A stretch of 64,000 bases of DNA from an uncultured bacterium (GTDB taxonomy: Bacteria; Lernaellota; Lernaellaia; Lernaellales; Lernaellaceae), in assembly GCA_964534375.1 (NCBI GenBank), contig CAZHPN010000002.1, positions 2,276 to 66,275 on the forward strand. The letters run 5' to 3'. The notes under the pieces were generated by a model. The model was given only the letters and a program-made list of their open reading frames with translations. It did no database searches and was not told the origin of the DNA. Shown piece after piece: positions 2,447 to 44,580 of the stretch. The position numbers were made by a program, and so were the translations under genes. Each line of letters starts with the position of its first letter. Within the stretch, counting starts at the first letter, position 1.

Positions 2447-2460
2447 GACCAACCACCCGC

Positions 2461-3495: not shown

Positions 3496-3541
3496 GCGGT
3501 TCTCCCGCCGGCGAACGGCGCCCCGAGGCTGGCGCGCCGGT

Positions 3542-4900: not shown

Positions 4901-4991
4901 CACGCGCCCCCTTGTTTTGCCGGAATTTATAACCCCTGCCGCCGGGAACTGCAACCAACCGCGTCAGTCCAGGCGTGACGCGAACGTCTCG

Positions 4992-7420: not shown

Positions 7421-7573
7421 CGCGCCCTCCGACTTGTTTGATTTGGCCAAGGCATACCAGGAAGCGGCTCGAAAATCCAGCGTCGGCCGGCTCCAGCGGC
7501 CAAATCGGCTTCGTTTCGTAAAATCAGGCCAAAGCGCTAGCGAAATGACATGGCAAACTGGCCCAAAGTGACG

Positions 7574-8074
7574 TTAACTGGCCTTTCCCGATACGGGCGG
7601 AAACGCCGCCCGCGCCTGCCGCACGAAAAGCGCGCGCAGCTTGTCCCAGAAGTCGCCGCCGAGGACGAAAAGGCTTGTCAGGAACATGGCGTCGGCGGCG
7701 AGGTTCACCCACAGCCGCGCGGGCGTCGCGTCGGGCAGCCATTGGGGCGCGTAGGCCATGACGTAACCGGGCGCCACGGGCAGCAGGAAAAGAATCAGCC
7801 CCGTCCAATGGCGAACCGGGCCGATGTCGCCCGCGGGCTTGAGGCTGCCGACCCAGCCCTTGGCGCGCTTCACGATGCGCTCGAAATTCTCTTTGCCCAT
7901 GACGGCCGCGGCCGGAATCGCCATGATCTCGAACCCAAAAAAGAGGACGCCGCCGACGGCCGTCTTCACCGCGGCCGGCCAGCTCGAATGGGCGACCGGA
8001 AAGACGCACAGCGGCAAAATCGCGCCGACGACGAGCATGGCGACGCCGACGGCGAATCTGGCATTGGCGCTCAT
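7574..8074 (-). CDS. Small integral membrane protein, hypothetical
   Basis: ATG (cat at 8072-8074). It is 166 aa with about four hydrophobic helices. It runs divergently from pfp. Confidence 0.45.
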   Translation of the reverse strand: MSANARFAVGVAMLVVGAILPLCVFPVAHSSWPAAVKTAVGGVLFFGFEIMAIPAAAVMGKENFERIVKRAKGWVGSLKPAGDIGPVRHWTGLILFLLPVAPGYVMAYAPQWLPDATPARLWVNLAADAMFLTSLFVLGGDFWDKLRALFVRQARAAFPPVSGKAS

Positions 8075-8247
8075 GAGGCGTTCCGTTCGCCACGATGCTT
8101 CGTCATGATCGTCCTCGCCTCTGAAAAAGTTCTATTTTCGCCGGCACGTTACCAACGTTTGGAGCCTTTTCCTATCCGGTCCGCGCCACGTTGAAACAAG
8201 GGCGCGTTGCCGCCATAATCGCGCGGCTTAGCACAAGGGAGCCCGGC

Positions 8248-11994: not shown

Positions 11995-13368
11995 CTAATT
12001 GCCGTCGTAATGCAAAATCACCCCACTGTAGCCGACGGCGAATACGTCCGAGGCCGAGCTGCCCCAGACGCCGTACAATGACTGTGCGGACGACGCGGGG
12101 ATCGACATCTGCGACCACGCGGCGCCGTTGTATTGCCAAATCCCCAGGCCGCTGCCTCCCACGCTTCCCACGACGAACACGTCGCTTGCCGAGGCGCCCC
12201 AAACGCCGGCCAGATCCATGGAAGACATCGCGGGGACTGTCATCGCCGACCACGAGGCGCCGTCGTAATGCCAGACCGGCTGGAGATATGCGCCGTCGTA
12301 TCCGACGGCGAACACGTCCGAGGCCGAGCTGCCCCAAACGCCGGTGAATATCACCGTGTCCGTCATTTCCACGGTCATCTCCGACCACGAGGAACCGTCG
12401 TAGTTCCAGAACGATCCGGCGTTTTCAGACGCGGAATAGCCGGCGGCGATCACGTTCGAAGCGGAACTTCCCCAAACGCCATTTAACCCGACGTCCGTCC
12501 CCGGGCCGGGTGTGGCGATCGACCACGAGCTTCCATTGTATTGCAAGGCGACCGGGCCGAATTCGCCGGTCCCGTCCCAGCCGACGCCGATCACGTTCGC
12601 GGCGGAACTTCCCCAAACGGCGCCAAAATACACTTCATCGGTCGTGATGTTCCCCATCGCCGACCACGAGGAACCGTCGTAATGCACGACGGTGACGCTG
12701 TCGGTGCTCGTCTGGTAGCTGCCCACCACGTACACGTCGGAACTGGCGCTTCCCCAAACGCCAACGAACGCTGCGGGGATCCCGGTCGCCGTATAGGACC
12801 ACGAGGAACCGTCGTAATGCCCGATCTCGCCGTTGTCGCCGACCGCGAACACGTCGGAAGGCGAGCTTCCCCAAACGGCGTGCAAATCGTACGGCTGCCC
12901 CCCGGCGGCCGCCACCGACCAATTGTCATCGTCATCGTCGACCGGCGACGTGTCATTGTCGTCGTCATCGTCGACGGTGTCGTTGTCGTCATTGTCGTTG
13001 TCGTCGTCATCGTTGTCGTCGTTGTCGTCATCGTTGTCGTCATCGTTGTCGTCATCGTTGTCGTCATCGTTGTCGTTGTCGTCGTTATCGTCGTCGTCGT
13101 TGTCGTCGTCGTCGGGGGCTGTGTCGTCGTCGACTGGCGGCGACGTGTCGTTGTCATTGTCGTCGTCGTTGTCATTGTCGTCGTCATCGTCCGGCGAAGC
13201 GTCGTTGTCGTCGTCGTCCGGCGAGGCGTCGTCGTCCGGCGAAACGTCGTCGTCGACGGCATGGCCGTGACTGCTGCTGCTGGAGCCGCAGTCGCACGAT
13301 GCCGCGGCAATGACCAGCAAACCCGCCAGAACCATCAGAGCCAGGTGCAAAGCGATTTTCGACCTCAT
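11995..13368 (-). CDS. Exported lipoprotein: lipobox, ~110-aa poly-Asp/Asn low-complexity linker, then 8-bladed beta-propeller-like repeat domain
   Basis: ATG (cat at 13366-13368) behind GGAGGG. Signal ...LVIAAASC. Linker DDDVSPDDDASPDDDDND...(DDDND)n. About eight ~45-aa repeats of the form GVWGSSASDVFAVG...HYDGSSWS. Confidence 0.75.
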   Translation of the reverse strand: MRSKIALHLALMVLAGLLVIAAASCDCGSSSSSHGHAVDDDVSPDDDASPDDDDNDASPDDDDDNDNDDDNDNDTSPPVDDDTAPDDDDNDDDDNDDNDNDDDNDDDNDDDNDDDNDDNDDDDNDNDDNDTVDDDDDNDTSPVDDDDDNWSVAAAGGQPYDLHAVWGSSPSDVFAVGDNGEIGHYDGSSWSYTATGIPAAFVGVWGSASSDVYVVGSYQTSTDSVTVVHYDGSSWSAMGNITTDEVYFGAVWGSSAANVIGVGWDGTGEFGPVALQYNGSSWSIATPGPGTDVGLNGVWGSSASNVIAAGYSASENAGSFWNYDGSSWSEMTVEMTDTVIFTGVWGSSASDVFAVGYDGAYLQPVWHYDGASWSAMTVPAMSSMDLAGVWGASASDVFVVGSVGGSGLGIWQYNGAAWSQMSIPASSAQSLYGVWGSSASDVFAVGYSGVILHYDGN

Positions 13369-14891: not shown

Positions 14892-17800
14892 TCACCGGGC
14901 CCGCGGCGCGGCCTGACTGGTCTTTTTCTTGCTTCCGCCGCTACAGGCTTGCTCCTGGCATGTCGCCGGCGGGATGCAGACTTCGCAAACGGCGCCGCCG
15001 GTCCCGCAAGCGCCGGAGTCGGTTCCGAGCTGGCACGTGCCGGTGTTGTCGCAGCAGCCGTTCGGGCACGACGTGGCGTCGCACACGCATTGGAAGCTCA
15101 GGCATTCGGCGCCAGAGGCGGTGCAATTTTGGCAAACCACGCCGCCCGTGCCGCAGTTGGAGTTGTCGCCGCCAGTTTGGCAGTTGACGCCGCTGCAGCA
15201 GCCGGACGGACACGAATTGGCGTCGCAGACGCACGCGCCGCCCGAGCATTCCTGACCGCCGGCGCACGTCGTGCAGGCCGCGCCGCCCGCGCCGCAGTTG
15301 CTGGGGCTGGCGGCCATGCAGACATTGCTCGCGCAGCAGCCGGCGCACGTCCCGTCGCACGCGCACTGCTGGTTCGTGCAACTATCTCCCAAATCGTTGC
15401 AATTCTGGCACGCGCCGCCGGCCTGTCCGCAGAGAGAGGGCGCCGTGCCGGCATAGCACGTGTTCCCGCTGCAACAGCCGTTGATCGTTGCGCACGACGC
15501 TTGCGTGCAGATGCATTGCCCGCCCGAGCACGTCTGGCCGTTGGCGCACGCGATGCAGGCGCCGCCGCCGGAGCCGCACTCGGCATCCGTGACCGGATTC
15601 ACGCAGGTCGACCCGTTGCAACAACCGCTCGCGCAGGCGCTGGTGTCGCAGACGCATTGATTGCCCACGCAATCGTTGCCCGCGCTGCACGTCTGACAGG
15701 CCTGGCCGTTGGTTCCACAGGCGCTGGGGCTGCCGGCAGTCTGGCAATTGCCGGTGTTGTCGCAGCAGCCCGTCGGGCAGGAACCCGACGCCCCCGGCGT
15801 GCAGGTGCACGTGCCGAGCACGCATTCCTGACCGCTGGCGCACGCGCCGCAGATGGCGCCGCTCGCGCCGCAATACGTGGTGTTCTCATTGTCGTAGATA
15901 ATGCACGGCCCAGCCGGCGTCCGGCAACATCCCGTATTGCACGTATTCGAGTTGCAGACGCACCCGCCGGCCACGCACTGGGCGCCGATTGCGGTGCAAT
16001 TCGTGCACGCCGCGCCGGCGGTTCCGCAATCCGCGTCGGCGCCGGAGGTCACGCAATTGCCGCCGTCGCAGCAACCCGAGACCGCCGCGCACGCCGTCGC
16101 GTCGCAGACACAGGCGCCGGACGCGTTGCAGATCTGTCCGGGGGCGCAGGAGAAGCAGGCCGTGCCGCCCGTGCCGCACGAGCCGGCGCTCTCGCCGCTA
16201 TAGACCTCGCACGGTCCGAGCGGCGACACGCAACAGCTTGCGGCGCACGAGGTCGCGTTGCATACGCAGGCGCCACTTTGACATTCTAATCCGCTGTCGC
16301 ACGAGACGCAGGGGGCGCCGTCCGCGCCGCATTGCGAATTGATATTGCCCTGCTCGCACGACGCCCCGGCGCAGCAACCCGAACTGCACGTCGTGTTGTC
16401 GCAGACGCATTCGCCGGCGACGCAATGGTTGCCCGCGCTGCAGACCTGACACTGCGCGCCGCCCGTGCCGCAGGCGCTGTCCGAGGTTCCGTCCTGGTTG
16501 CATTCGGGGGCTGAACCCGGGCAGCAACCGGTGCAGGTAATCGTGTCGCAGGTGCACTCGCCGCTCACGCAATCGACGTCGGTCGCGCACGCCGAACACG
16601 TCGCGCCGCCCAGGCCGCAGGAGCCGGGGCTTTGTTGGTCGAACGTTTCGCACGGCCCGGCGAATCCGGCGACGCAGCAGCCGTTCGCGCACGAAACGCC
16701 GTCGCAAATGCACACGCCGCCGTCGCCGCACCGATATCCGGCGTTGCACGAGATGCACACGGCGCCGCCCACTCCGCAGTCGGAATTCTGGTTGCCCGGC
16801 TCGCAGGTTGTGCCGTCGCAGCACCCGGAGGTGCATGCGGTCGTGTCGCAAACGCATTGCTGCTGCGGGCTGCACTCATTGCCCTCGGGGCAGGCTTGGC
16901 AACTCGCGCCGCCTTTGCCGCAAAAAGTGCTTGTTGTGCCGTCCTGGCAGTTGTTATTGGAGTCGCAGCAGCCTTTTGGGCACGAGGTTGGGTCACAGGT
17001 GCAGACGCCGTTTGCGCATTCTTGATTGGTCAGGCAACCCGCGCAGACCGCGCCGTCGGCGCCGCACGCCGTGACGCTCTGCTGCGCGATCGGCAGGCAA
17101 TTCCCGGCGACGCCGTAGCAGCAGCCCCCGGCGCATGTCGTCGCATCGCAGGCGCAGGTCCGGTTCGTGCAGGGCACGCCGTCGGCGCAGGCGACGCACG
17201 CCGCGCCGCCGCTGCCGCAGGCCGAACTATCCTCGGTGGTCACGCACTGGTTTCCCGAGCAGCAGCCCGTCGGGCAAGCCGTGGAGTCGCACGTGCAGGA
17301 GTTTTTCACGCATTCCTGCCCCGTGGCGCAGGGCGCGCACGCGACGCCGCCTGTGCCGCAGGCCGAATTATCCCCGGCGGTCACGCACTGGTTTCCGGAA
17401 CAGCAGCCGTTCGGGCATGACGTTGCGTCGCACACGCAGACGCCGTTCACGCATTCGGCGCCAAGGGCGGTGCAATCCTGGCAGACCGCGCCGCCGAGCC
17501 CGCAGTCGTTATTGGCTTCGTCCTGGTGGCAGCTGCCGGTGCTGTCGCAACAGCCGTTGTTGGCGCCCACGCAGTGCGCGGCGCAACTTTCGCACTGATA
17601 CGTCGCCGCATTGCAGTATTCTTGCGGCGTCATCGCCGTGCAATTGACGCAGGCTGTTCCGCCGGTCCCGCAGTAGTTGCTGTCGGTCCCCGTCAGGCAT
17701 GTGGCGCCGGAACAGCAACCTGTCGGGCAGTCTGATGGATCGCAGAAGTTCACGCAGGCCCCGTTTTGGCAGACGGTTCCGCTGGCGCAATCCTGGCACG

Positions 17801-18146
17801 GTTGGCCGTCCACGCCGCAAGCCGAGTTGCTGTTTCCCGGTTGGCAGCCTTCGTCGAGGCAGCAACCCGAGCAATATTTCGAGGCATGACAGGGGGGCGG
17901 GGTCGAGTCGTCATCGTCGGCGTTGTCGTCGTCGCCCGCGCTGTCGTTGTCGTTGTCATCGTCGTCGCCCGCGCTGTCGTCGTTGTCGTCGTTGTCGTTG
18001 TCGTCGTCGTCGATCGCGGAATCGTCATTGTCGTCGTCGGCCTGGCGCTGGCCCGTCAAGGATGCGGCGCCGCTGCCGCCGCCGCAGGACGTCGCCAAAA
18101 GCACCAACAAAGTCGCCAAGAGCGTGAATAACAACGCGCGTTTCAT
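14892..18146 (-). CDS. Giant exported lipoprotein: lipobox, poly-Asp linker, ~20 tandem cysteine-rich repeats (Myxococcus-type Cys-rich repeat-like)
   Basis: ATG at 18146 (MKRALLFTLLATLLVLLATSC) behind GAAGGTGG. Linker DDDNDDSAIDDDDNDNDDNDDSAGDDDDNDND. The body repeats C-x-CD-x-T-x-C-x-x-GCC-x-G-x-x-C-x(3-7)-CG-x-GG-x-x-C-x-x-C roughly every 45 aa. Antisense ORFs in this region are artefacts of the repeat DNA. Confidence 0.75.
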   Translation of the reverse strand: MKRALLFTLLATLLVLLATSCGGGSGAASLTGQRQADDDNDDSAIDDDDNDNDDNDDSAGDDDDNDNDSAGDDDNADDDDSTPPPCHASKYCSGCCLDEGCQPGNSNSACGVDGQPCQDCASGTVCQNGACVNFCDPSDCPTGCCSGATCLTGTDSNYCGTGGTACVNCTAMTPQEYCNAATYQCESCAAHCVGANNGCCDSTGSCHQDEANNDCGLGGAVCQDCTALGAECVNGVCVCDATSCPNGCCSGNQCVTAGDNSACGTGGVACAPCATGQECVKNSCTCDSTACPTGCCSGNQCVTTEDSSACGSGGAACVACADGVPCTNRTCACDATTCAGGCCYGVAGNCLPIAQQSVTACGADGAVCAGCLTNQECANGVCTCDPTSCPKGCCDSNNNCQDGTTSTFCGKGGASCQACPEGNECSPQQQCVCDTTACTSGCCDGTTCEPGNQNSDCGVGGAVCISCNAGYRCGDGGVCICDGVSCANGCCVAGFAGPCETFDQQSPGSCGLGGATCSACATDVDCVSGECTCDTITCTGCCPGSAPECNQDGTSDSACGTGGAQCQVCSAGNHCVAGECVCDNTTCSSGCCAGASCEQGNINSQCGADGAPCVSCDSGLECQSGACVCNATSCAASCCVSPLGPCEVYSGESAGSCGTGGTACFSCAPGQICNASGACVCDATACAAVSGCCDGGNCVTSGADADCGTAGAACTNCTAIGAQCVAGGCVCNSNTCNTGCCRTPAGPCIIYDNENTTYCGASGAICGACASGQECVLGTCTCTPGASGSCPTGCCDNTGNCQTAGSPSACGTNGQACQTCSAGNDCVGNQCVCDTSACASGCCNGSTCVNPVTDAECGSGGGACIACANGQTCSGGQCICTQASCATINGCCSGNTCYAGTAPSLCGQAGGACQNCNDLGDSCTNQQCACDGTCAGCCASNVCMAASPSNCGAGGAACTTCAGGQECSGGACVCDANSCPSGCCSGVNCQTGGDNSNCGTGGVVCQNCTASGAECLSFQCVCDATSCPNGCCDNTGTCQLGTDSGACGTGGAVCEVCIPPATCQEQACSGGSKKKTSQAAPRAR

Positions 18147-18603
18147 GTGAACCACCTTCTACCGGATCAACACGGCGTGTCTGACAACTGCAAGACTTGT
18201 GCCTCGTTCGGCGACGCCTTTGGTTCTCTAATCTACCACAATTTCAAATGGTTTCAACAACGGTCTTGCGGGCGATGGCCGAATGACTGTGAAAATTTTT
18301 CACAGAACTGGTAAAACTTTTCACTATTTTCTGCTCCCGTTCGTTCGCCGGTTCCCGTTCCGGTCTCCATGGGAAGACCCCTCTTCTCGCTCCGGAAGAC
18401 AAAATCTCCGCCTCTCTCCTCCCGGCGCAAAGTGCGTTGTTTTCCTGGCCGAACGGGGCGGCCGTGGCATTTTCTCTATTGTCTCGGACCGTCGAATGGA
18501 TCAAAATAAAAACCGGACGAAGGGCGTCTGGCGGGCGGAGCGGCGCCTGGAACGGACGCTCGAAATCAACAACTCGGCGACGAGCGACGATAAGGGCGGC
18601 GAC

Positions 18604-19737: not shown

Positions 19738-19832
19738 CGGCCCGCGCGGGCGGCGACCGTTGGCCGCCGTCCGACGAAATGCCGGCTCCGGATGGCCGCG
19801 GCGCCGCGTTTCCGCCTTGCCAAGCCCGCTTT

Positions 19833-19843
19833 CGTGTTACAAT
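19833..19843 (+). promoter_or_regulatory. Conserved promoter-like box TTTCGTG-T-TACAAT (extended -10 type) upstream of paralog 1
   Basis: tttcgtgttacaatatt with TACAAT at 19838-19843, 50 nt upstream of ATG 19888. An identical motif with identical spacing precedes paralog 2. Confidence 0.45.
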
Positions 19844-19887
19844 ATTTTCTCGGCCGGCAACCGAACGACACAAGGCGTCACTGTCCG

Positions 19888-21855
19888 ATGTTGACCTTCG
19901 ACCTTTGGGAAAAAATCCCCCGTTTGAACGGCGACGTGAATTATCTCGAACTTTCGCGCACCTTGAGCGAACCGGAAGTGCTGATTCTCTCTCGCGTCAA
20001 CGGCCGGCTGCCGCTGGGCGAGATCGTCTCCAGCCTGCGCTACGAACGCGATTACCTCGCGCGCATCGTGGCGCGGTTGACGCGGCTGCACGCGTTGCTG
20101 TTCGACGATCCGCGCATCGCCGAGGAAATAACGGCCGAAATCGTCGATTTTCGCGGTGATTTCGCCCGGAGCGAAACGCGGGCGTCGCGTCCGCGAGGCG
20201 TCCGCGAACCGACCGCGCCCGACCCGCAGGAAGCGCCAGCGGCGGCTTGGGAACCGGAATGGGAGGCGCCGGCGGGCGAGCCGTCGACGGAGCCGGCGCC
20301 CGCGCCGGCGAGCGAGCCGGCGCCGGCGGCGCCGGAGCGATTCGCGGAATCGGGCAATTGGGACGTCGATTCGTTTTTCGCGCTGATCAATCGGCTGTAC
20401 GTGGAACGGCGCACGGGCCTCCTGCGCGTTTTTCGCGATCGGCGCACATACAAGACTTTCTATTTGGAGCGTGGGCGGATCGTCAATATCGCCTCGATGC
20501 CGTTCTCCGTCGCCGAATGCCTGGGCCGCGTCATTCAGCGGGCGGGCCTGATCGACCAGGCGAAGGTCATTGACTCGCTGCTCGCCGCCAAACGGACCGG
20601 CCAGCGTCAGGGCGAGGAACTGGTGGCGATGGGCGCGATCGACGGCGAGATCCTCTTCGAAATGCTGCGCGTGCAGATGGAGGTCAAGGCGACCGAGATC
20701 ATGGACTGGGCCCTGGGCGACTGGTCCTTCGAGGAAGCCGCGTCGCTGCCGGCCAGCCTGTCGCGCATCGACGTTTCCATGCCGCGGCTGCTGTTCAGCC
20801 TGGCTTGGAAGCGCTATCCCCACGGCCGCGTGCCGATGGAGTTGAAAAGCCGGCAGAACCTGTACATCGGCAAGCGCGTGCCGCCGACGTACACGCTGGA
20901 CGATTTCCATTTCGACGACGCGATGAAGAAGTTCTGCGGCATCGCCCTGGAACGGGACAACACGGTCAAACGCTTGTTCCTCGTCACGAATCTGAAGGCC
21001 GAAAAAACCTACAAGGTGACGTGGATTCTGCATCTGCTCGGCATTCTGGATTTCTTCGACGAGCCGCTCGAGAAACGCAACGCCCGCCGGATCGCCGAGC
21101 TCAGCAATCGCCTGCGCGAATTGGAGCACGGTTCGCCCTTTGACGGGTTGGGCGTCGCATGGACCGCGGATTCCAAAATGGTCCAGAATACGTACGTCCG
21201 GGCGGCGGCCGAGATGGACCATGCGATCGAGAACAGCGACGGGCCGGAGCGCCGTTTCGCGGAACAGATTCGCGAGCATCTCGACCGGGTTTATGAAACC
21301 ATCAAGACGCGCGAAGGCCGGCGAATCAGCCGCGAGAAGTTTCTCGAGGCGCCCGCGATTGCGGCGGGGGCCGAGGCGCGGCGGCGCGCCGGCGAAGAAT
21401 TTCTGTTCGGCGACGAGAATCCGAAGGCGGCGATCCCGGAATTCGAGGCGGCCATCGAAGTGATCGACAACCACGGCGAATACCTCGCCGAACTGGGCCT
21501 GGCGCGGTTCCAAGTCGAATACGCGGCGAACGGACCCGGCGTGGAAGACGCCCGCCGACTGATTCGCCGGGGGATCGCCGCCAGCCCGGAATCCGACGTC
21601 GTGCGCCTGTGCGAAGCGCTGATGTACAAAGAAGAGTACGAATTGGCCAAGGCGTTGGCGTCGCTCGCCCGCGCGCGGCAACTCAACCCGAACAATCGCC
21701 TCGCCGGCCTGCTGATCGAGGAGATCAACGCCGGTCGGCGGTCGGCGGCGCACGAGAACGCCGTGCGGGATTTTCTCGATCGCGACGCGACCCCTGCGCG
21801 AAAAACCGGGGGGGCCGCGCGCGGCAAACGCCCGGCGGACGGTTCGCCGAGTTAG
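19888..21855 (+). CDS. DUF4388 (PATAN-like) domain protein with degenerate J-domain and C-terminal helical/TPR-like region; paralog 1
   Basis: ATG at 19888. N-terminal domain, Pro/Ala/Glu linker, then a DUF4388-like segment GNWDVDSFFALINRLYVERRTGLLRV...YLERGRIVNIAS...ECLGRVIQRAGLI. J-like segment FDGLGVAWTADSKMVQNTYVRAAAEMDHAIENSDG, where HPD is replaced by HAI. Confidence 0.7.
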   Translation: MLTFDLWEKIPRLNGDVNYLELSRTLSEPEVLILSRVNGRLPLGEIVSSLRYERDYLARIVARLTRLHALLFDDPRIAEEITAEIVDFRGDFARSETRASRPRGVREPTAPDPQEAPAAAWEPEWEAPAGEPSTEPAPAPASEPAPAAPERFAESGNWDVDSFFALINRLYVERRTGLLRVFRDRRTYKTFYLERGRIVNIASMPFSVAECLGRVIQRAGLIDQAKVIDSLLAAKRTGQRQGEELVAMGAIDGEILFEMLRVQMEVKATEIMDWALGDWSFEEAASLPASLSRIDVSMPRLLFSLAWKRYPHGRVPMELKSRQNLYIGKRVPPTYTLDDFHFDDAMKKFCGIALERDNTVKRLFLVTNLKAEKTYKVTWILHLLGILDFFDEPLEKRNARRIAELSNRLRELEHGSPFDGLGVAWTADSKMVQNTYVRAAAEMDHAIENSDGPERRFAEQIREHLDRVYETIKTREGRRISREKFLEAPAIAAGAEARRRAGEEFLFGDENPKAAIPEFEAAIEVIDNHGEYLAELGLARFQVEYAANGPGVEDARRLIRRGIAASPESDVVRLCEALMYKEEYELAKALASLARARQLNPNNRLAGLLIEEINAGRRSAAHENAVRDFLDRDATPARKTGGAARGKRPADGSPS

Positions 21856-21967: not shown

Positions 21968-23980
21968 ATGCTGAGCTTCGACCTGTGGGAAAAAATCCCA
22001 AAATTAAACGGCGAACTGGATTACCTGGAGTTCTCGCGCACCTTGAGCGAGCCGGAGGTGATGATTCTGTCGCGCGTGAACGGCAGCAGTTCGCTCGGCG
22101 AAATTGTCACGGGCTTGCGTTACGATCGCGACCACCTGGTGCGGCTAGTCGCCCGCCTGGCGAACCGGCAGGCGCTGCTGTTCGACGATCCGCTCGTCGC
22201 CAGCGAACTCGCGACCGAAATCGCCGATCTTCGCGTCGATTTTACCGGCGCCCGCAAGCGAACGGCGCGGCCCCGCGTCGAACGGAAACAGACCGCGCCG
22301 GAAGCGGAGGCGGCGGAGCCGGACGCGGACCGGGCGACGGAACCGGCGGCGAATCGGGAGCCGGCGGGGCCGGCGGCGCCCGCGGCCGCGGCGGAGTGGA
22401 CCGAGCCGGCGCCGGCGCCGCCGGTCGAACCGGATAAATCCGCGGACGCGGCCATCGAGCCGGCCGCGCAGCCGCCGACGGCGGAGCGGTACGCGGAATC
22501 AGGCGAATGGGAGATCGATTCGTTTTTCTCGTTGGTCAATCGTTTGCACGGGGAGCGTCGCAGCGGCATTCTACGCGTTCACCGCGACGCCCGCACGTGC
22601 AAGGCCATTTATTTCGACCTCGGCTCCCTGGTTAATATCAGCTCGACGCCGTTCTCGGCGGCGGAGTGTCTGGGCCGCTTGATCGAACGCGCGGGCTACA
22701 TCGACCAGAAGAAGGTCGTCGAGTCGCTGGTGGCCGCCAAGGGCTCCGGACGGCGCCAGGGCGAAGAATTGGTGGCGATGGGCGCGATCCGCCGCGATCT
22801 GCTGGGCGCGATGCTGAGCGTGCAGGTGGAATACAAAGCCGCCGAGATTCTGGAATGGGGCCGGGGCTTCTGGACGTTCGAAGAGGCCTCGTCGTTGTTC
22901 GACCGCGTGTCGCGCATCGAAACGTCGGTTCCCCGGCTGTTGTTCAATTTGGTCTGGAAACGATATCCGGCCGCCCGCCTCGCCGACCAACTGCGGCAGC
23001 GCGGCGAAATGTACGTCGGCAAGACCGAGGCGCCGATCTATGAACTGGACGAATTCGGGTTCGGGGCGGCCCTGCGCAAGTTCGTGACGATCGCGATCGA
23101 GAAGGACAGTCCGCTGAAACGCGTGCTGGTCGTCAGCAATCTCAAGCCGGAACAAACCCAGCGCATGTTGTGGGCGTTGTACCTGACCGGCATGATGGGC
23201 TTCTACGACGATTCGCGCGAAGACCGCGGCGCCGCCCTCATCGTCGATCTCAATAACGAATTGAAGACGGTCGAGCGCGAGCCGTATTTCGACATCCTGC
23301 ACATTCATTGGACGGCCGACACGGCCATGGTCGAGAAATCGTATGCGCGCTTGTCGGCCGAAATGGAGCACGCCATCGCAACGACCGACGGCCTGGCGCG
23401 GCAGCTCAAAGAACGGATTTACGACTACGTCAAGACCGCCTACGAGGCCCTGCGGACCAAGGAAGGCCGGCGAGCCTACCGGCTGCGAAGATTCGACGAG
23501 GATTTCGTCATCTTCGGCGCCGAGATCTTGCGCCAAAAGGGCGAGAGCTACCTGTTCACCAAGGAAGATCCCGTGCAGGCCATTCAGGAGTTCGAGGGCG
23601 CCATCGAGGTCAATGATCGCAATGGCGAATACTACGCCGAACTGGGCCTGGCGCTGTTCCTCCGCGATTACGGCGGCCGCGGGCGAGGCGTCGATGAGGG
23701 CCGGCAATTGCTGCGCAAGGGCGTGGCCATGGCCTCGCAGTCGGAGGTCGTGCATCTGTGCCTGGCGATGATGCACCGCACCGAACGCCAGTACGCGAAA
23801 GCGTTGTCGTCATTGGAGCGCGTGCTGCAAATCAACCCGCAAAATCGCTTCGCCCGCATTGTGGCGAACGAAATCCGGAGCGGCGAAAAATCGGCCGAGC
23901 ACGAGGCGGCCGTCAAGCAATTCGTCGAACGGCATGCCGCCGTTCAACAAAAGAAGTCCACGGAAGCCGCGCCCCAATAA
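21968..23980 (+). CDS. DUF4388 (PATAN-like) domain protein with degenerate J-domain and helical/TPR-like region; paralog 2
   Basis: Same architecture as 19888-21855 (MLSFDLWEKIPKLNGELDYLEFSRTLSEPEV...). J-like segment YFDILHIHWTADTAMVEKSYARLSAEMEHAIATTDG. Confidence 0.7.
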   Translation: MLSFDLWEKIPKLNGELDYLEFSRTLSEPEVMILSRVNGSSSLGEIVTGLRYDRDHLVRLVARLANRQALLFDDPLVASELATEIADLRVDFTGARKRTARPRVERKQTAPEAEAAEPDADRATEPAANREPAGPAAPAAAAEWTEPAPAPPVEPDKSADAAIEPAAQPPTAERYAESGEWEIDSFFSLVNRLHGERRSGILRVHRDARTCKAIYFDLGSLVNISSTPFSAAECLGRLIERAGYIDQKKVVESLVAAKGSGRRQGEELVAMGAIRRDLLGAMLSVQVEYKAAEILEWGRGFWTFEEASSLFDRVSRIETSVPRLLFNLVWKRYPAARLADQLRQRGEMYVGKTEAPIYELDEFGFGAALRKFVTIAIEKDSPLKRVLVVSNLKPEQTQRMLWALYLTGMMGFYDDSREDRGAALIVDLNNELKTVEREPYFDILHIHWTADTAMVEKSYARLSAEMEHAIATTDGLARQLKERIYDYVKTAYEALRTKEGRRAYRLRRFDEDFVIFGAEILRQKGESYLFTKEDPVQAIQEFEGAIEVNDRNGEYYAELGLALFLRDYGGRGRGVDEGRQLLRKGVAMASQSEVVHLCLAMMHRTERQYAKALSSLERVLQINPQNRFARIVANEIRSGEKSAEHEAAVKQFVERHAAVQQKKSTEAAPQ

Positions 23981-24684: not shown

Positions 24685-25070
24685 AAAACGACGGCGACAA
24701 AACGCACTTGCAATCCGTTAACGGACGTTGGCGCCGACGCGCCATGGATATCCGTTTGGAAAAGAACTGTGCGGACCGCCTGCCGCGCCGGCGGACGACG
24801 CTGCCGGCGCAGCGACGAATCGCCCTTGTTTCCGACGGTTGCGCGCGGGGCGGCGCGTTTCGCTCTCTGCCGATAACTCGCGCGAACGGCGCGGAAAGCG
24901 GACCATTCGAAACCGAATGACAGAAAAGATCATCCAATAATAAACGACGGCTCGCCGGCGCGCCAATTTCCCTCTTTTTTTATCATTTTTCTTCCTTTTT
25001 GCGGAGTTTCTGGTATACTGCCTTAGGTCGGCGAATCGGCTTCTGTGAGGACAGAACGAGGGGAAGGTCG

Positions 25071-27608
25071 ATGCGCCGCGCCACCACGATGATTCTGATC
25101 CTCTTCCTCTGGACGCCGCTGTTTGTCGCGGCGTGCAGCCCCGCACCCGAACACCACCATCACCATCCGGTCGATGACGACGAGTCGCCCATGGACGACG
25201 ACACGTCGCCGAGCGACGACGACACCTCGCCCGCCGACGACGATGCGTCGCCGAGCGACGATGACGCATCGCCCGCCGACGACGATGCGTCGCCGAGCGA
25301 TGACGACCTGTCGCCCGCGGACGATGACGCCTCGCCGACCGACGACGATGCATCGCCCGCGGACGATGACGATGACGCGTCGCCGACGGATGACGATGCG
25401 TCGCCGAGCGATGACGACACCGCGCCTGCCGATGACGACACGGCGCCTGCCGACGACGACACCGCGCCGAGCGATGACGACACCTTGCCGGGCAACGGCG
25501 GCGATGACGACGACGATGACGACACGACGCCCGGCAACGGCGGCGATGACGACGACGACGACGACACGACGCCCGGCAATAGCGGCGATGACGACGACGA
25601 CGACACGACGCCGGGCAACGGCGGCGATGACGACGACGACTCCGCGCCGACCGATGACGACGCCTCGCCTGCCGACGACGATGACAACGACGACATGACG
25701 GTCGACGTGCAATACGTGGCCGGCGGCACCTATTCCGGCGCCGCATTGACGCTGGACGCCGCGGGCAACGCCACGGTCATCTCCGGCAAATCCCGCGATC
25801 TGCTCGCCTACACGGAAAGCGGCGGCAATTTCAGCGAGCAACTGGCGGCGTTCGGCGTTTACGCCAACCCATCGGCGACGCTCGGGCCCGATGGCGCCCA
25901 GCACGTGGCCTTCTACGATTGGATCAACAAGAACCTGCGTTATGCCACCAACGCCGGCGGCGAATGGACGGATGTCCTGGTGGACGGAACGGGCGACGTC
26001 GGCCATTACAGCGGCATCGCGCTGGACGCGGGCGGCGCCGTCCACATCGCGTACACGGTGCAAACCGCCGGCGTGCCCAGCGGCGTGCGCCACGCGACGA
26101 ACGCGAGCGGCGCCTGGCAGACGGACGAGATCGCGGACGGCTCGCAAATCGGCGACTATCCGCAAATCGCGATCGACGCCAACGGCCTGCGGTATGTCAC
26201 GTACAACGACGACGGCAACGTGCAGGTTTGCCTCGCGAATTGGAACGGGGCGGCCTGGAGCAACTTCGCACTGCCGTATTCGACGCCGGACGGTCGGGCG
26301 AGCGCCGTGGCCGTCGGGAGCGATGGAACGCTGAATGTTCTTTACCATCAAGTCAGCGGCGGCATGGTGTACGCCACCGGCACGTACAGCAGCCTCGACT
26401 ACAACCTGATCAACAGCGTCGACAACGTCGCCGATACGCTGGCGATGGCGCTCGACGGCAACGGCGTGGCGCATATTACGTACGCCATCGGCACGAACGA
26501 AGTAGGCTACGGCAACAACTCCGGGGGGACATGGAGCCTGCAAACCATCGGCGCCGGTTACCCCGTGTTCATCGCCGCCAATTCGGTGAATGACGTGGCG
26601 ATCTCGCTCGCGCGGATCGGCGTTGCGCGCAAGCAAGGCGCGACGTGGACAGAGACATACTTCGACTACGGCTTCACGGCCGCGGCGCCGGCCATGCGCA
26701 ACGATGCGCAGGCCCGCCAACATTTCGTTTACCTGGAAAACGAAACCGCGACGCTGCGTCATGCGACGGACGCGACCGGCGGCTGGACCTTCGAGTCGAT
26801 CGCGACCCCGATCGGAACCGGCATGCTTGACAGCGGCCTGGTCGTCGACGCGTCCGGAGGCTTGCACGTCTCATTTTACAACGGCGCGAATCAAAACCTG
26901 AATTACGCGACCAATGCGGGCGGGACGTGGGCGACCAGTGTCATCGACGGCGGTCCGACTGTCGGCCAGGCGAGCGCCATGGCCAGGGACGCCGCCGGCG
27001 TGTTGCACGTGAGTTATTCGGACGACGGAAACGGTGCTCTGAAGTATGCAACCAACGCTGGCGGCGCCTGGCAAACGACGATGGTCGACAGCAGCGGCGC
27101 GATCGGGGCGTCGGCAATCGCCGTCGACGGCGCCGGCACGGCGTACATCGCCTATAGCAATCAGACCGTCGGCGCGATCGAACTGGCGACCGGCGGGATC
27201 GGCGGCTTCTCCGTCCAGACCGTCGATGCCGCCGGCGGCGCCTCGGTGTCGCTCGTGCTCGACGCCAACGGCCAGCCGCAGTTGGCGTACGTCGGCGCCG
27301 GGCTGCGCCACGCTGCGTTGGTCGGTTCGACCTGGCAGGTTGACACGGTCGACCCCGCAGGGACGGCCGCCGGAACCGCGATCGCGACCTGGGGCAACCT
27401 GGGGCTGGCGATCGCCTATCAAAACGGCGCCGCGCTCAGCCTAGCGCTCGGCCGGCCCGGCAATTGGTGGCTGTTGCCGGTCGATACGCTCGACAATGTC
27501 GGCCAACAACCGTCGCTGGTCGCCGCGCCCGACGGCTCCCGCTACGACGTCGGCTATCTCGGCCAGGGCGGCGTCTGGCTGGCGACGGTGACGTTCACGG
27601 CGAACTAG
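25071..27608 (+). CDS. Exported lipoprotein: lipobox, His5 tract, ~200-aa (DDDxSP)n acidic linker, beta-propeller-like repeat domain
   Basis: ATG at 25071 behind GAGGGGAAGG. A TATACT box lies at 25014-25019. Signal ...LFVAACSP. Linker HHHHHPVDDDESPMDDDTSPSDDDTSPADDDASP... (about 25 units), then DDDDDDDTTPGNGG x4. The body repeats ~45 aa of the form YATNAGGxWxTxxVD...G...S[IL]A[LV]D..G..H[IV][AS]Y. Confidence 0.75.
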   Translation: MRRATTMILILFLWTPLFVAACSPAPEHHHHHPVDDDESPMDDDTSPSDDDTSPADDDASPSDDDASPADDDASPSDDDLSPADDDASPTDDDASPADDDDDASPTDDDASPSDDDTAPADDDTAPADDDTAPSDDDTLPGNGGDDDDDDDTTPGNGGDDDDDDDTTPGNSGDDDDDDTTPGNGGDDDDDSAPTDDDASPADDDDNDDMTVDVQYVAGGTYSGAALTLDAAGNATVISGKSRDLLAYTESGGNFSEQLAAFGVYANPSATLGPDGAQHVAFYDWINKNLRYATNAGGEWTDVLVDGTGDVGHYSGIALDAGGAVHIAYTVQTAGVPSGVRHATNASGAWQTDEIADGSQIGDYPQIAIDANGLRYVTYNDDGNVQVCLANWNGAAWSNFALPYSTPDGRASAVAVGSDGTLNVLYHQVSGGMVYATGTYSSLDYNLINSVDNVADTLAMALDGNGVAHITYAIGTNEVGYGNNSGGTWSLQTIGAGYPVFIAANSVNDVAISLARIGVARKQGATWTETYFDYGFTAAAPAMRNDAQARQHFVYLENETATLRHATDATGGWTFESIATPIGTGMLDSGLVVDASGGLHVSFYNGANQNLNYATNAGGTWATSVIDGGPTVGQASAMARDAAGVLHVSYSDDGNGALKYATNAGGAWQTTMVDSSGAIGASAIAVDGAGTAYIAYSNQTVGAIELATGGIGGFSVQTVDAAGGASVSLVLDANGQPQLAYVGAGLRHAALVGSTWQVDTVDPAGTAAGTAIATWGNLGLAIAYQNGAALSLALGRPGNWWLLPVDTLDNVGQQPSLVAAPDGSRYDVGYLGQGGVWLATVTFTAN

Positions 27609-39079: not shown

Positions 39080-39108
39080 TTGACAATCGCCGGCTCATGC
39101 TTTATAAG
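39080..39108 (+). promoter_or_regulatory. Near-consensus sigma70 promoter for hppA
   Basis: TTGACA at 39080-39085, 17-nt spacer, TATAAG at 39103-39108. This implies a ~185-nt leader. Confidence 0.45.
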
Positions 39109-39300
39109 GCGCCAGACCTAAGTCGTTAAAGAAACTCAACGGCAGCAATCCTCAGGACGCATGGGGCACGTAGTGAACGCTTTTTTTGCGACGCAATGCG
39201 GCAGAAAAAACGCGTTCGCGTCGTGTTCCGCTTCCGGGCGCCGCCGAGCCGGTTCATTTTTCCAGGATTCTTGAATCCGCATCTTTGAAAGGAGGGCGTG

Positions 39301-41793
39301 ATGGCAGTTGACAGCAGATGGGCCTCGAGTTCGCTCAGGCGCTCATCGGTCGCGCGCAAGGCGGTGGTCGGCGCGATCTTTCTCGGCGTTTTGTTCGCCG
39401 CCGTTTCCGCGTTCGCCAGCGAAGCGGAACTGGTTGTTCCCGACCTGAGCAGCCAGACGTTCGTCGGCGGCGTTTCGGGCAGCGCGCTGCTGTGGGGCGG
39501 CATGGTGATCTGCCTGCTGGGCATGGCCTTCGGCCTGATCCAGTTCATGCAGATCCGCAATCTGCCGGTGCACAAAGCGATGCTCGAAATCTCGGAACTG
39601 ATTTACGAAACCTGCAAGACCTACCTGATCCAGCAAGGCAAATTCCTCGCCATGCTGTGGGCGTTCATCGCCGCGATCATGGTGGTCTATTTCGGCTTCC
39701 TGAAAGAAGGCTACAGCGCCATTCAGGTGGTCATCATCATCATCTTCAGCATCGTCGGCATTCTCGGCAGCTATTCGGTGGCGTGGTTCGGCATCCGAAT
39801 CAACACGTTCGCGAACTCGCGCACGGCGTTCGCCGGCCTGCAGGGCATGCCGTATCCGACGATGGCCATCCCGCTGAAGTCGGGCATGAGCATCGGCATG
39901 CTGCTGATCAGCGTCGAGCTGGTCATGATGCTGTTCATCCTGCTCGTGATTCCGGGCGCGTACGCCGGCCCGTGCTTCATCGGCTTCGCGATCGGCGAGT
40001 CGTTGGGCGCGGCCGCATTGCGCATCGCCGGCGGCATTTTCACGAAGATCGCCGACATCGGCTCCGACCTGATGAAGATCGTCTTCAAGATTAAAGAAGA
40101 CGACGCGCGCAACCCGGGCGTCATCGCGGACTGCACGGGCGACAACGCGGGCGATTCGGTCGGCCCGACGGCGGACGGCTTCGAAACCTACGGCGTCACC
40201 GGCGTGGCGTTGATCTCGTTCATTCTGCTCGCGGTGAAGAGCAGCGAAGTGCAGGTGCAGTTGCTGGTGTGGATCTTCGTGATGCGCATCGGCATGATCG
40301 TCACCAGCGCGCTGTCGTACTTCATCAACGGCGCGATTTCCAAGGCCCGTTACGGCAAGGCGACGAAGTTCAATTTCGAGAGCCCGCTGACCACGCTGGT
40401 GTGGCTGACGTCCGCGATCTCGATCGGCATGACGTACCTGCTGTCCGCCTCGCTCGTTCCGGGTCTGGGCGACGGTTCGCAATGGTGGAAACTCGCGTCG
40501 ATCATCACCTGCGGCACCCTGGCCGGCGCGATCATTCCGGAATTGGTCAAGGTCTTCACCTCGACGAACTCCGGCCACGTGAAAGAAATCGTCACGGCGT
40601 CGCGCGAAGGCGGCGCTTCGCTCAACATCCTCTCCGGCCTCGTCGCCGGCGACTTCAGCGCCTACTGGATGGGCGGCGCCATTATCGCCCTCATGGCCGC
40701 GGCCTGGGGCGTGAGCACGTTGGGCCTCGACAGCCTCATGTCGTATCCGGCGATCTTCGCCTTCGGTCTGGTCGCGTTCGGCTTCCTGGGCATGGGCCCC
40801 GTGACGATCGCGGTCGACTCGTATGGCCCGGTGACCGACAATGCGCAGTCGGTCTTCGAACTCTCGACGATCGAGACGCTGCCCGGCATCAAAGAGGACA
40901 TCAAGAAGCAGTACGGCTACGAGCCGAATTTCGACAAGTGCAAGGCGTATCTCGAAGAAAACGACGGCGCGGGCAACACCTTCAAGGCGACCGCGAAACC
41001 CGTGCTGATCGGCACGGCCGTCGTCGGCGCCACGACGTTGATCTTCTCGATCATCCAAGTGCTGATTGGCAACGCCGCGCATGGAGCGGTCAATCTCGAC
41101 GCCGCGCGCCAATTGGTCACGGAAGGCCTGTCGATTCTGAATCCGCTGTTCCTGCTCGGATTGATCACGGGCGGGGCCGTGATTTTCTGGTTTGCCGGCG
41201 CGTCGACGCAAGCCGTCTCCACCGGAGCCTACCGCGCGGTCGAGTTCATCAAGAAGAACATCAAACTCGACGGCACGGCCGAGAAAGCGTCGGTATCCGA
41301 CAGCAAGAAGGTGGTGGAAATCTGCACGCAGTACGCGCAGAAGGGCATGTTCAACATCTTCCTCGCGGTGTTTTTCTCGACGCTCGCCTACGCCTGCGTC
41401 AACGCCTACTTCTTCATCGGCTACCTGATCTCGATCGCGATCTTCGGCTTGTACCAGGCGATCTTCATGGCCGACGCTGGCGGCGCCTGGGACAACGCGA
41501 AGAAGCTGGTCGAGACCGACATGTCGTACGGCGGCAAGGGCACCGAGCTGCACGCCGCGACCGTCGTGGGCGACACGGTCGGCGATCCGTTCAAAGACAC
41601 CTCGTCGGTGGCGATGAACCCCATCATCAAGTTCACGACCCTGTTCGGTCTGCTCGCGCTCGAGCTGGCGATCACCATCGACTCGACGGCGGTGAAGGTC
41701 AGCCTCGCGCTGGCGTTCCAGCTCGTGGCGATGTTCTTCGTCTATCGGTCGTTCTACGGGATGCGCATCCCGGTGCTGCAAGACAAGAAATAA
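39301..41793 (+). CDS. hppA: Membrane-bound H+(or Na+)-translocating pyrophosphatase
   Basis: ATG at 39301 behind AAAGGAGGG. V-PPase motifs GGIFTKIADIGSDLMKI and DCTGDNAGDSVGPTADGFETY, plus 15-17 TM helices. About 50 extra N-terminal residues form a predicted signal/TM segment. Confidence 0.9.
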   Translation: MAVDSRWASSSLRRSSVARKAVVGAIFLGVLFAAVSAFASEAELVVPDLSSQTFVGGVSGSALLWGGMVICLLGMAFGLIQFMQIRNLPVHKAMLEISELIYETCKTYLIQQGKFLAMLWAFIAAIMVVYFGFLKEGYSAIQVVIIIIFSIVGILGSYSVAWFGIRINTFANSRTAFAGLQGMPYPTMAIPLKSGMSIGMLLISVELVMMLFILLVIPGAYAGPCFIGFAIGESLGAAALRIAGGIFTKIADIGSDLMKIVFKIKEDDARNPGVIADCTGDNAGDSVGPTADGFETYGVTGVALISFILLAVKSSEVQVQLLVWIFVMRIGMIVTSALSYFINGAISKARYGKATKFNFESPLTTLVWLTSAISIGMTYLLSASLVPGLGDGSQWWKLASIITCGTLAGAIIPELVKVFTSTNSGHVKEIVTASREGGASLNILSGLVAGDFSAYWMGGAIIALMAAAWGVSTLGLDSLMSYPAIFAFGLVAFGFLGMGPVTIAVDSYGPVTDNAQSVFELSTIETLPGIKEDIKKQYGYEPNFDKCKAYLEENDGAGNTFKATAKPVLIGTAVVGATTLIFSIIQVLIGNAAHGAVNLDAARQLVTEGLSILNPLFLLGLITGGAVIFWFAGASTQAVSTGAYRAVEFIKKNIKLDGTAEKASVSDSKKVVEICTQYAQKGMFNIFLAVFFSTLAYACVNAYFFIGYLISIAIFGLYQAIFMADAGGAWDNAKKLVETDMSYGGKGTELHAATVVGDTVGDPFKDTSSVAMNPIIKFTTLFGLLALELAITIDSTAVKVSLALAFQLVAMFFVYRSFYGMRIPVLQDKK

Positions 41794-41814: not shown

Positions 41815-41856
41815 GCGGGCCGGCCGGGCGTCACGCTCGGCCGGCCCGTTTGATTT
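41815..41856 (+). terminator. Rho-independent terminator after hppA
   Basis: Stem gggccggccg / cggccggccc (10 bp), followed by gtttgatttt. Confidence 0.6.
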
Positions 41857-41898
41857 TCGGACGATCCTCCAAGGCGATTTTTTTGCCGCGTTTTCCGT

Positions 41899-41926
41899 TT
41901 GACTCGCGTTTCCGCTTGCGTATAAT
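41899..41926 (+). promoter_or_regulatory. Near-consensus sigma70 promoter for the small acidic peptide gene
   Basis: TTGACT at 41899-41904, 16-nt spacer, TATAAT at 41921-41926. Confidence 0.5.
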
Positions 41927-41985
41927 GCAACAACTTGTTCAGGGTGGTTTTCAAGTTTACTGTTTCCGTTGCAAGGAGAAGGTCG

Positions 41986-42228
41986 ATGCGCGCATTGTAT
42001 CTCGTGCTGAGTTTGGCGGTCCTGGCGGCCTTGCTGGCGATTCCCGCGATCGCGGCCGTGAACAACAATCCGGCCGGCGGGTCCGAAGACCATGTGCTGC
42101 AGTCCGACGACGACTCGGCGCCCAGCGACGACGATACGTCGCCCGGCGTCGACGACGACAGCTCCAATCCGCTCCAAGCGCGTACGACGTACGCCGACGG
42201 AAACATCGACGGTTGCGGCTGCTACTAG
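41986..42228 (+). CDS. Small secreted acidic peptide (signal peptide + DDDSAPSDDDTSPGVDDDSS + C-terminal DGCGCY)
   Basis: ATG at 41986 behind AAGGAGAAGG. Signal peptide MRALYLVLSLAVLAALLAIPAIAA. The product is 80 aa. It shares the DDDxSP motif with the large lipoproteins. A dedicated promoter lies upstream and a terminator downstream. Confidence 0.55.
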   Translation: MRALYLVLSLAVLAALLAIPAIAAVNNNPAGGSEDHVLQSDDDSAPSDDDTSPGVDDDSSNPLQARTTYADGNIDGCGCY

Positions 42229-42257
42229 GCCGCCATTCCACAGACCTCGTTTCCATG

Positions 42258-42290
42258 CAGGGTTCCCCACAGCGGGAACCCTGTTTTTTT
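42258..42290 (+). terminator. Rho-independent terminator after the small peptide gene
   Basis: Stem cagggttccc / gggaaccctg (10 bp, 5-nt loop), followed by ttttttt. Confidence 0.6.
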
Positions 42291-42443
42291 GTCCGCGCGC
42301 CAACTGCCTCCGCCGCCGGCCCGGATTGACGCCGCCGCGTTCCGGTCCTAATTTCCCCGGGAAACAGAGGGTCGACAATCACGTCGGTTTGGACGCGGCG
42401 GCCTGAACGCGCCCCGTCGAACGCCGCGGCCGAGGGAGTCGAG

Positions 42444-43872: not shown

Positions 43873-44580
43873 ATGAAGCCCGCGCGAATGATCTTCACTT
43901 TCGGAATCGCGCTCGCCGTTTTCGGCGCGGCCTGGGCTGTCGCCGCCGATCCGCCGTGGCGCACCGTCGCGGGGGGCCGCTACCTCGTCTTTCCGCCGGC
44001 GCATCCGGCCGGCGAAAAGTGGCCGCTGTTGTTCGCCTTGCACGGCATGGGCGGCGAGGCGCAGAGCTACGGCCGCTTATGGCGCGACGCGCTGGGCGGC
44101 GGCTACCTCGTCGTCGCGCCGCAAGCGCCGCTGCGCGAACGCAACGGCGCCATGGTCGCCTCGTGGGGGAACAATCGCGAGACGCAGACGTTCCTCCTCG
44201 GCGTTTGGGACGAAGTTCACCAACAGCATCAAATCGACCCGGCGCACACGGTGGTCGCGGGCTACAGCGCTGGCGGCTACGCCCTATGGACGCTCGTCAA
44301 CGCCCGCGTCGAGCAGGTCGCGGGGGTGATTTTCCAGGCCGCCGTGCCGCGCCCGAATGCGGGGTCGCTGAAGGGCAAGCACGTGTTTCTCATCGCCGGC
44401 GAGGGCGACGGCAGCTTCGACCGAACCAAGGCGGACCAGGCGTTCGAGGAACTGACCAGGCAGGGCGCCGCCGTGCAAATGTACGTGGCGCCGGGCGCGT
44501 CGCACGCGTCGGTCTACGACAAGATCCGTCCGGCGGCGGCCTGGATTCTGGCCGATTTCTCGGCGCCCCGCGCGCCGTAG
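43873..44580 (+). CDS. Secreted alpha/beta-hydrolase (carboxylesterase/PHB-depolymerase-like)
   Basis: Has a signal peptide. Nucleophile elbow GYSAGG. The cap region resembles phospholipase/carboxylesterase-family proteins. Confidence 0.7.
   Translation: MKPARMIFTFGIALAVFGAAWAVAADPPWRTVAGGRYLVFPPAHPAGEKWPLLFALHGMGGEAQSYGRLWRDALGGGYLVVAPQAPLRERNGAMVASWGNNRETQTFLLGVWDEVHQQHQIDPAHTVVAGYSAGGYALWTLVNARVEQVAGVIFQAAVPRPNAGSLKGKHVFLIAGEGDGSFDRTKADQAFEELTRQGAAVQMYVAPGASHASVYDKIRPAAAWILADFSAPRAP

Follow-up and report, generated by a model that had tools for sequence, protein, structure and literature searches.

A conserved small gene for an exported, acidic peptide with a cysteine-bearing C-terminus in uncultured Lernaellota-like bacteria

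The 64,000-nt stretch of DNA analysed here (hereafter the window; contig CAZHPN010000002.1 of GenBank assembly GCA_964534375.1, from an uncultured bacterium of the Lernaellota) contains an 80-aa open reading frame (ORF) at 41986-42228 on the forward strand (+). The ORF is annotated merely as a hypothetical protein, and the identical protein is present on four public contigs. Sequence comparison indicates that this small ORF is a real gene under protein-level selection, and its product (MRALYLVLSLAVLAALLAIPAIAAVNNNPAGGSEDHVLQSDDDSAPSDDDTSPGVDDDSSNPLQARTTYADGNIDGCGCY) is predicted to be an exported acidic peptide ending in a conserved cysteine module. The family to which it belongs appears to be undescribed and confined to Candidatus Lernaella and its uncultured relatives (a Lernaellota / FEN-1099-like clade). 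We tentatively propose an abundant product that sits in the cell envelope and uses its terminal thiol to join a polyanionic chain to a partner, in effect a protein consisting of a tag alone, and give this reading a probability of roughly one in three (0.35).

The small gene lies outside all curated families, has expression signals that rank among the strongest and best conserved in its neighbourhood, and is found clade-wide in an uncultured candidate phylum. Expression at the level that these signals imply would make the product one of the main constituents of the envelope in these anaerobes. Were the polyaspartate (polyAsp)-Cys ending a reusable tag, it would represent a new, helix-less type of C-terminal anchoring signal and provide a handle for finding the Lernaellota surface proteome. 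Should the product be merely a lineage-specific orphan peptide, its interest would be local.

A stand-alone gene with strong expression signals

Transcription of the small gene is predicted to start from a sigma-70-type promoter, TTGACT-16-TATAAT (41899..41926, +), with its -35 element at 41899-41904, its -10 element at 41921-41926 and 11 of 12 matches to the consensus. The inferred transcription start gives a 5' untranslated region (UTR) of ~53 nt (41933..41985, +) that contains the Shine-Dalgarno sequence, a ribosome-binding site AAGGAG (41973-41978, +) lying inside AAGGAGAAGG (to 41982), 7 nt upstream of the ATG at 41986. The TAG stop codon (42226-42228) is followed by an intrinsic terminator (42257..42291, +; GCAGGGTTCCC-CACAGC-GGGAACCCTGT), in which a stem-loop of 11 pairs at 42257-42284 is combined with a T7 tract and a dG of ~-19 kcal/mol. 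On the upstream side, the terminator of the H+-pyrophosphatase gene hppA (41815..41859, +), with a stem of 16 pairs (14 of them GC) at 41815-41849 followed by TTGATTTTCG, shields the small gene from upstream transcription. The initial annotation had described a stand-alone transcription unit composed of exactly these elements; every one of them is in place, and the layout is kept in six other lineages. GC content by codon position in the ORF (0.58/0.47/0.80) resembles that of the adjacent genes.

Promoter sites matching at least 11 of the 12 consensus positions are rare in the window, which holds three, far beyond chance given the ~0.04 expected from first-order Markov simulations of the same sequence. 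The other two are TTGACA-17-TATAAG at 39080 (+), before hppA, and TTGACA-18-TAAAAT at 13438 on the reverse strand (-), which precedes a gene for a polyAsp lipoprotein (11995-13368). Since both stand in front of such genes, the host clearly uses near-consensus promoters of this kind. The gene downstream encodes a phosphofructokinase (PFK; PF00365) and is probably preceded by a promoter of its own, TTGACG-17-TAATTT (42326..42354, +), read from the sequence as an 8/12 match that would be weak alone. Because PFK has this promoter-like element, the small gene and PFK are regarded as separate units. The same TTGACG...TAATTT arrangement precedes PFK in L088, and TTGACG elements are found in L189, L190 and L192.

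Orthologues and selection

Orthologues of the small gene were found in six further lineages, together with one fragment (L112), so that seven full loci with context are available: the window, L085, L088, L189 (metagenome-assembled genome (MAG) GCA_012517325.1), L190 (the Candidatus Lernaella stagnicola MAG GCA_030765525.1), L192 and L194. A word-indexed protein search with the single sequence returned one relative and an exhaustive profile search one more, the third sequence; the orthologues in L189, L190, L192 and L194 were found by looking upstream of the closest PFK orthologues. Assignment of the family to the Lernaella clade is inferred from the PFK matches together with the L190 orthologue. 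The further matches of a five-sequence profile search were merely polyAsp and MYXO-CTERM look-alikes. Back-translated scans of genomes and metagenomes (two-sequence alignment) gave no match, nor did a back-translated viral scan (seven-sequence alignment). A search of metagenomes for the DNA pattern DDD...GCGCY returned 95 loci, among which, after filtering, the sole new relative was L112, from a 55% GC organism; this fragment has the same C-terminal ending as the family, followed by a terminator. A frame recurring in many contigs of human-gut metagenomes, ...RRRCGRSRQSSD[IF]ADRKQ[RQ]HGCGCYC (L100, L102, L110, L116 and others), was rejected as a chance match to the pattern in an unrelated short ORF. 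Searches of the literature on Cys-Gly-Cys periplasmic peptides, polyAsp linkers and FEN-1099 turned up no description of the small-peptide family.

The expression signals are conserved throughout. All seven loci have a TTGACN-16-TATAAT promoter (11/12) with the -10 element 57-60 nt upstream of the ATG, an (A/G)AGGAG ribosome-binding site, and a terminator downstream of the gene with a dG of -16 to -27 kcal/mol. That non-coding signals are so conserved in genomes of 63-68% GC argues for strong, probably constitutive expression, and a high abundance of the product is plausible on these grounds.

Protein-level selection is visible in the coding sequence itself. Among the seven loci PFK is 79-89% identical and the small peptide merely 32-58%, with all differences in length among the orthologues in frame. 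Many of the changes that separate the window from L085 in the signal peptide and at the C-terminus are synonymous. For the same pair, the ratio of nonsynonymous to synonymous substitution rates (dN/dS, by the Nei-Gojobori method), which rests on few sites, is ~0.4 in the signal peptide, ~1.2 in the acidic middle and ~0.11 in the last 17 columns. The initial annotation had allowed that the gene might prove spurious if relatives lacked the ORF; with orthologues in six other lineages, it stands.

The peptide belongs to no Pfam family and has no NCBIfam match above cut-offs, and Rfam returned 0 matches across the whole window. The fold of the whole transcript is ordinary (z = -1.3) and the consensus fold of the 5' UTR has no predicted pairs. 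Small RNA and riboswitch readings of the locus were dropped because of this lack of conserved UTR pairing and of unusual folding.

Anatomy of the product

Each of the seven proteins opens with MR, continues with a hydrophobic stretch of 15-18 residues and in most cases a Pro, and reaches an AxA-type site, features of a standard Sec-type (type I) signal peptide with a predicted cleavage site. In the window protein the predicted signal peptide spans codons 1-23 (41986..42054, +; MRALYLVLSLAVLAALLAIPAIA), with an n-region MR, a hydrophobic core of 16-17 residues, a Pro at -5 and A-x-A. It is neither a lipoprotein signal, for there is no lipobox Cys and the first Cys of the window protein is residue 77, nor that of a twin-arginine translocation (Tat) substrate, the twin-arginine motif being missing. 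The mature peptides are predicted to be 52-107 residues long with a net charge of -12 to -52, and contain no Cys or His other than the terminal Cys residues and one His in the window copy. The exported acidic peptide described by the initial annotation is thereby borne out at the sequence level in all seven orthologues. AlphaFold2, run with a small alignment, predicts residues 2-17 as the sole helix and gives a pLDDT of ~50 for the remainder, so that the mature chain is modelled as disordered.

The signal peptide is followed by an acidic low-complexity spacer, in the window protein codons 24-60 (42055..42165, +), with three DDDxxP/S units. Spacer length ranges from ~25 residues (window, L085 and L088) to ~85 (L192 and L194), and the number of DDDxx repeats among the orthologues from 3 to >20. 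Related MAGs encode many unrelated exported proteins with similar D-runs behind the signal peptide, for example P0016, labelled Ca. Lernaella stagnicola, and a 525-aa lipoprotein in L190. In these Lernaellota-like polyAsp linkers the same DDDxxP/DDDTx repeats stand directly after the signal peptide, as in the window peptide; they precede a large domain, whereas the linker of the window peptide precedes merely a 20-residue Cys module. From its distribution, the DDDxxP motif is best seen as a clade-wide low-complexity linker, a generic spacer.

The window itself encodes three large lipoproteins with very long DDDxxP-type runs after the lipobox (11995-13368, -; 14892-18155, -; 24999-27608, +), whose lipoboxes end in AAC, ASC or TSC before the D-runs begin. 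None has a Pfam domain, and they share nothing with the peptide beyond the acidic motif. The lipoprotein at 24999-27608 has HHHHH ahead of ~30 DDDxSP units, and Cys-rich repeats (CTNxxCACD...) are present in that at 14892-18155.

The C-terminal module comprises codons 61-80 and the stop codon in the window gene (42166..42228, +; NPLQARTTYADGNIDGCGCY). The family consensus over ~20 residues is sGDKLK+x[YHQ][DEN]D[SGN]T[DN][VIA]GGCG[CA][YW] followed by 0-3 residues, from which the window and L085 modules have diverged. G76-C77-G78 is invariant in the seven lineages, 1-7 residues from the end. At the position of the second Cys, L189 has Ala (GGCGAY) and L194 has no counterpart (GGCGW), so that Cys-Gly-Cys (CGC) is present in five of the seven lineages and in L112. 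As GCG is invariant and dN/dS there is ~0.11, against ~1.2 in the spacer, this Cys module is the conserved, probably functional end of the protein. The proposal in the initial annotation that the GCGCY ending could form a disulfide or bind metal fares less well: its conservation and probable function hold, and a two-Cys site is weakened by the loss of the second Cys in two lineages.

Proposed role of the terminal thiol

On the reading that we favour, the cell would produce the precursor abundantly, export it through Sec and cleave it behind A-x-A, and the mature polyanion of 52-107 residues would be retained in the cell envelope. The spacer would act as a flexible tether, and the terminal thiol module would link the chain to an envelope component or to a second copy of the peptide, either covalently (by a disulfide or another thiol linkage) or through a bridging metal. 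The envelope would thus be decorated with polyanionic chains. PolyAsp-GCGC-COOH would then be a reusable C-terminal tag, of which the small peptide is the tag alone.

The idea of a modular tail comes from other proteins with the same ending. Three of the loci encode an exported transglutaminase-like protein of ~910 aa with a signal peptide, a PF01841 domain (28.7 bits), and D-runs followed by GCGC at the stop codon. These genes (L192, 5568-8300; L190, ~7069-9341; L189, ~7322-9353; all -) are convergent and lie 0-3 genes beyond PFK, and their products end in ...DDDDDDAGCGC, ...DDDDDDSGGGCGC and ...DDDDDDDDGCGC. A PDB sequence search with the transglutaminase-like protein found no match. In L085, a 40-codon ORF (1811-1933, +; MPAALVAQAVDTTDDNASPDDDATPRHHHGAGSGSNGCGC) that ends in ...HHHGAGSGSNGCGC (SNGCGC before the stop) directly follows the hppA terminator, the position occupied by the small gene in the window. 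It has no signal peptide, promoter or Shine-Dalgarno sequence, and resembles what is left of a polyAsp+GCGC gene after truncation. Since acidic tails ending in Cys were limited to these proteins in 1.8 Mb of fetched loci, most of them from other phyla, polyAsp followed by GCG(C) may be a modular tail, although this amounts to just two or three independent observations.

A more far-reaching version of this proposal, which we consider rather unlikely, is that polyAsp + GGCG(C)(Y/W)-COOH is a new C-terminal thiol tag that covalently attaches exported proteins of Lernaellota-like bacteria to the envelope without the transmembrane helix and Arg cluster required by all known C-terminal sorting signals. 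The peptide would be its tag-only and most abundant substrate and would form a polyanionic surface coat. The target of attachment could be a lipid, a polysaccharide, an S-layer or another protein, and the tagged proteins would include the transglutaminase-like enzymes as one class.

The closest known parallel is the group of Cys-containing C-terminal sorting signals (MYXO-, JDVT-, Synerg- and CGP-CTERM), which have a short signature with an invariant Cys and often a second Cys two residues away (10.1101/2023.06.07.544157). Proteins with MYXO-CTERM-type signals resemble the peptide in that an exported protein ends in an invariant-Cys signature. Small proteins that consist of such a tag alone exist, for instance the MXAN_6627.5 family, as do proteins of Myxococcota that combine a signal peptide, an Asp-rich run and the tag (P0009-P0011). 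Unlike these, the peptide ends 0-3 residues past GCG[C/A][Y/W] and has neither a transmembrane helix nor an Arg cluster. An NCBIfam scan of P0001, P0003 and P0007 at E-values up to 10 gave no sorting-domain match, while the control P0010 scored 23.2 bits against TIGR03901 (cut-off 20). As the transmembrane-helix, Arg-cluster and hidden Markov model features all fail, the peptide is not regarded as a MYXO-CTERM-type member.

Several of these findings weigh against the envelope-linked peptide. The tail does not have the helix and Arg cluster present in all known Cys-type sorting signals, and does not match TIGR03901. Neither the second Cys nor the terminal Tyr is invariant. The transglutaminase tails share just polyAsp+GCGC with the peptide and not the rest of the module, and the loci of the window, L085 and L088 contain no transglutaminase-like gene of this type. 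No attaching enzyme or partner was found, PFK being the sole conserved neighbour across the seven loci. Finally, cleavage of the signal peptide was judged by inspection with the -3/-1 rule of thumb.

Alternative functions

The best placed of the alternatives, though an unlikely one, is that the product is a soft-metal or redox peptide, with the C-terminal Cys-Gly-Cys serving as a dithiolate chelator (of Cu, Zn, Ni, Cd, Hg or As) or as a redox-active periplasmic CXC disulfide and the polyAsp binding hard cations. Such endings have precedents: Erv2 has a CGC tail that serves as a redox shuttle, and copper chaperones have CXC sites. The occurrence of CGC in most of the lineages, on a strongly negative peptide, is in keeping with this role. 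Binding of thiophilic metals is chemically reasonable by analogy with Xaa-Cys-Gly-Cys tetrapeptides, which form 1:1 dithiolate Hg(II) complexes and share with the peptide the Cys-Gly-Cys turn of CXC thiolate sites of the metallothionein type (PMC8328728). Unlike in those sites, the second Cys varies within the peptide family; because L189 and L194 do without it, an intramolecular two-thiol site is not a feature of the family. Nor is any metal transporter, resistance or Dsb-like gene conserved near the small gene in the seven loci.

The combination of a small gene, a conserved Cys-bearing C-terminal core and a variable pro-region would also suit the precursor of a modified or signalling peptide, such as a ribosomally synthesised and post-translationally modified peptide (RiPP), a pheromone or a chalkophore-like compound, with the C-terminus as core and the acidic part as pro-region. 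Methanobactin precursors have CGSCY, which bears a vague resemblance to the core of the peptide. Radical-SAM and methyltransferase genes are found ~4 kb upstream of the small gene in L088, but the pair is limited to that locus, and no tailoring enzyme, exporter or receptor gene is conserved adjacent to the small gene in the seven loci. A Sec signal peptide is atypical of RiPP leaders, and no MbnB/MbnC-like (DUF692) gene is present among the Pfam-annotated neighbours. We judge a precursor role to be improbable. A methanobactin-like system was rejected, given the lack of a conserved adjacent modifying, exporter or immunity gene at loci that have PFK as their sole conserved neighbour.

More improbable still is a nearly functionless peptide whose strong promoter and partly leaky terminator aid the expression of PFK. 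It is true that the peptide gene and PFK form the sole gene pair conserved in all seven loci, with both outer neighbours changing, and that the promoter and terminator are better conserved than most of the coding sequence. However, purifying selection acts on the amino-acid sequence of the signal peptide and the C-terminal module, a promoter-like element precedes PFK itself, and the terminators of the small gene are strong. In addition, L112 is not beside PFK, and PFK orthologues with 79%, 73% and 68% identity exist without the peptide gene.

The least probable reading is the one that the initial annotation drew from the shared DDDxSP motif, namely a soluble partner of the polyAsp lipoproteins (a counter-ion or chaperone) or a secreted acidic matrix peptide: the repeats are common to the peptide and the three lipoproteins of the window, and one lipoprotein gene likewise has an 11/12 promoter, but the motif is found in many unrelated exported proteins and varies freely in the peptide family (dN/dS ~1, 3 to >20 repeats), so that it gives no sign of partnership, the like charges of peptide and lipoproteins would repel rather than pair, and synteny between the lipoprotein genes and the peptide gene is missing from the six further loci.

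Two well-characterised proteins invite comparison. The sulfur carrier SoxY, a folded protein of Ig-like structure, forms a pair with SoxZ, is exported by Tat, is encoded in sox operons, and has a C-terminal GGCGG swinging arm. By analogy, both SoxY and the peptide would be periplasmic proteins with a single functional Cys in a Gly-rich extreme C-terminus, and the GGCG core is identical. A SoxY-like protein was rejected, as the peptide is modelled as disordered, has a Sec-type signal and no Pfam or NCBIfam match, and has no sox genes adjacent. Lpp, Braun's lipoprotein of Escherichia coli, combines a lipobox Cys and a coiled-coil body with a C-terminal Lys through which it is joined to peptidoglycan. 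Like the gene for Lpp, the small gene is monocistronic, comprises ~80 codons, starts from a very strong promoter and ends at a terminator of its own, and Lpp is a small envelope protein covalently linked through its C-terminus, an arrangement that the peptide may share by analogy. An Lpp-like protein was rejected too, as the peptide lacks both a lipobox and a predicted structure and its tail is based on Cys.

Genomic context

The small gene is directly upstream of PFK in all seven loci, and all other neighbours vary. In the window its upstream neighbour is hppA (39298-41793; PF03030, E = 6e-180), which is 90% identical to its counterpart in L085; a scan with hppA otherwise gave best identities of at most 79%, with matches scattered over many phyla. 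Across the loci the upstream gene is of several types: hppA, a DsrK-like gene, a gene for an 805-aa protein without assignment, a dCMP deaminase gene, a gene for an unassigned protein of 376-379 aa, or one for a Toluene_X outer-membrane protein. That the peptide gene and PFK lie side by side may be due to inheritance or to transcriptional coupling of some kind, and nothing evident connects a secreted peptide biochemically with a glycolytic enzyme of the cytosol. A tblastn search of the window with the neighbours of the small gene in L190, L192 and L088 revealed no partner gene in common.

The gene downstream of PFK encodes a secreted DLH-like hydrolase in four of the seven loci and other products in three. 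In the window this is a DLH/S9-like alpha/beta hydrolase with a signal peptide (43873-44580, +); L085, L088 and L189 also have it, and identity is 52-60% among the window, L085 and L088.

Between hppA and the small gene, L085 has a set of genes (2286-6032) that encode a PSK_trans_fac/PIN toxin-antitoxin pair and DsrE2-like, TusA, NarI/DsrM-like and HdrD/DsrK-like (CCG domain) proteins. These genes are missing from the window and may be an inserted sulfur-relay cassette. In L190 (1-3397) and L192 (1-3277), three paralogous proteins of ~380 aa, each with a membrane anchor at the N-terminus and without a Pfam domain, are encoded upstream of the small gene, an array not present in the window. The window has tandem paralogues of its own at 19792-21855 (+) and 21968-23980 (+), which encode proteins of ~680 aa with DUF4388, the second also with TPR repeats.

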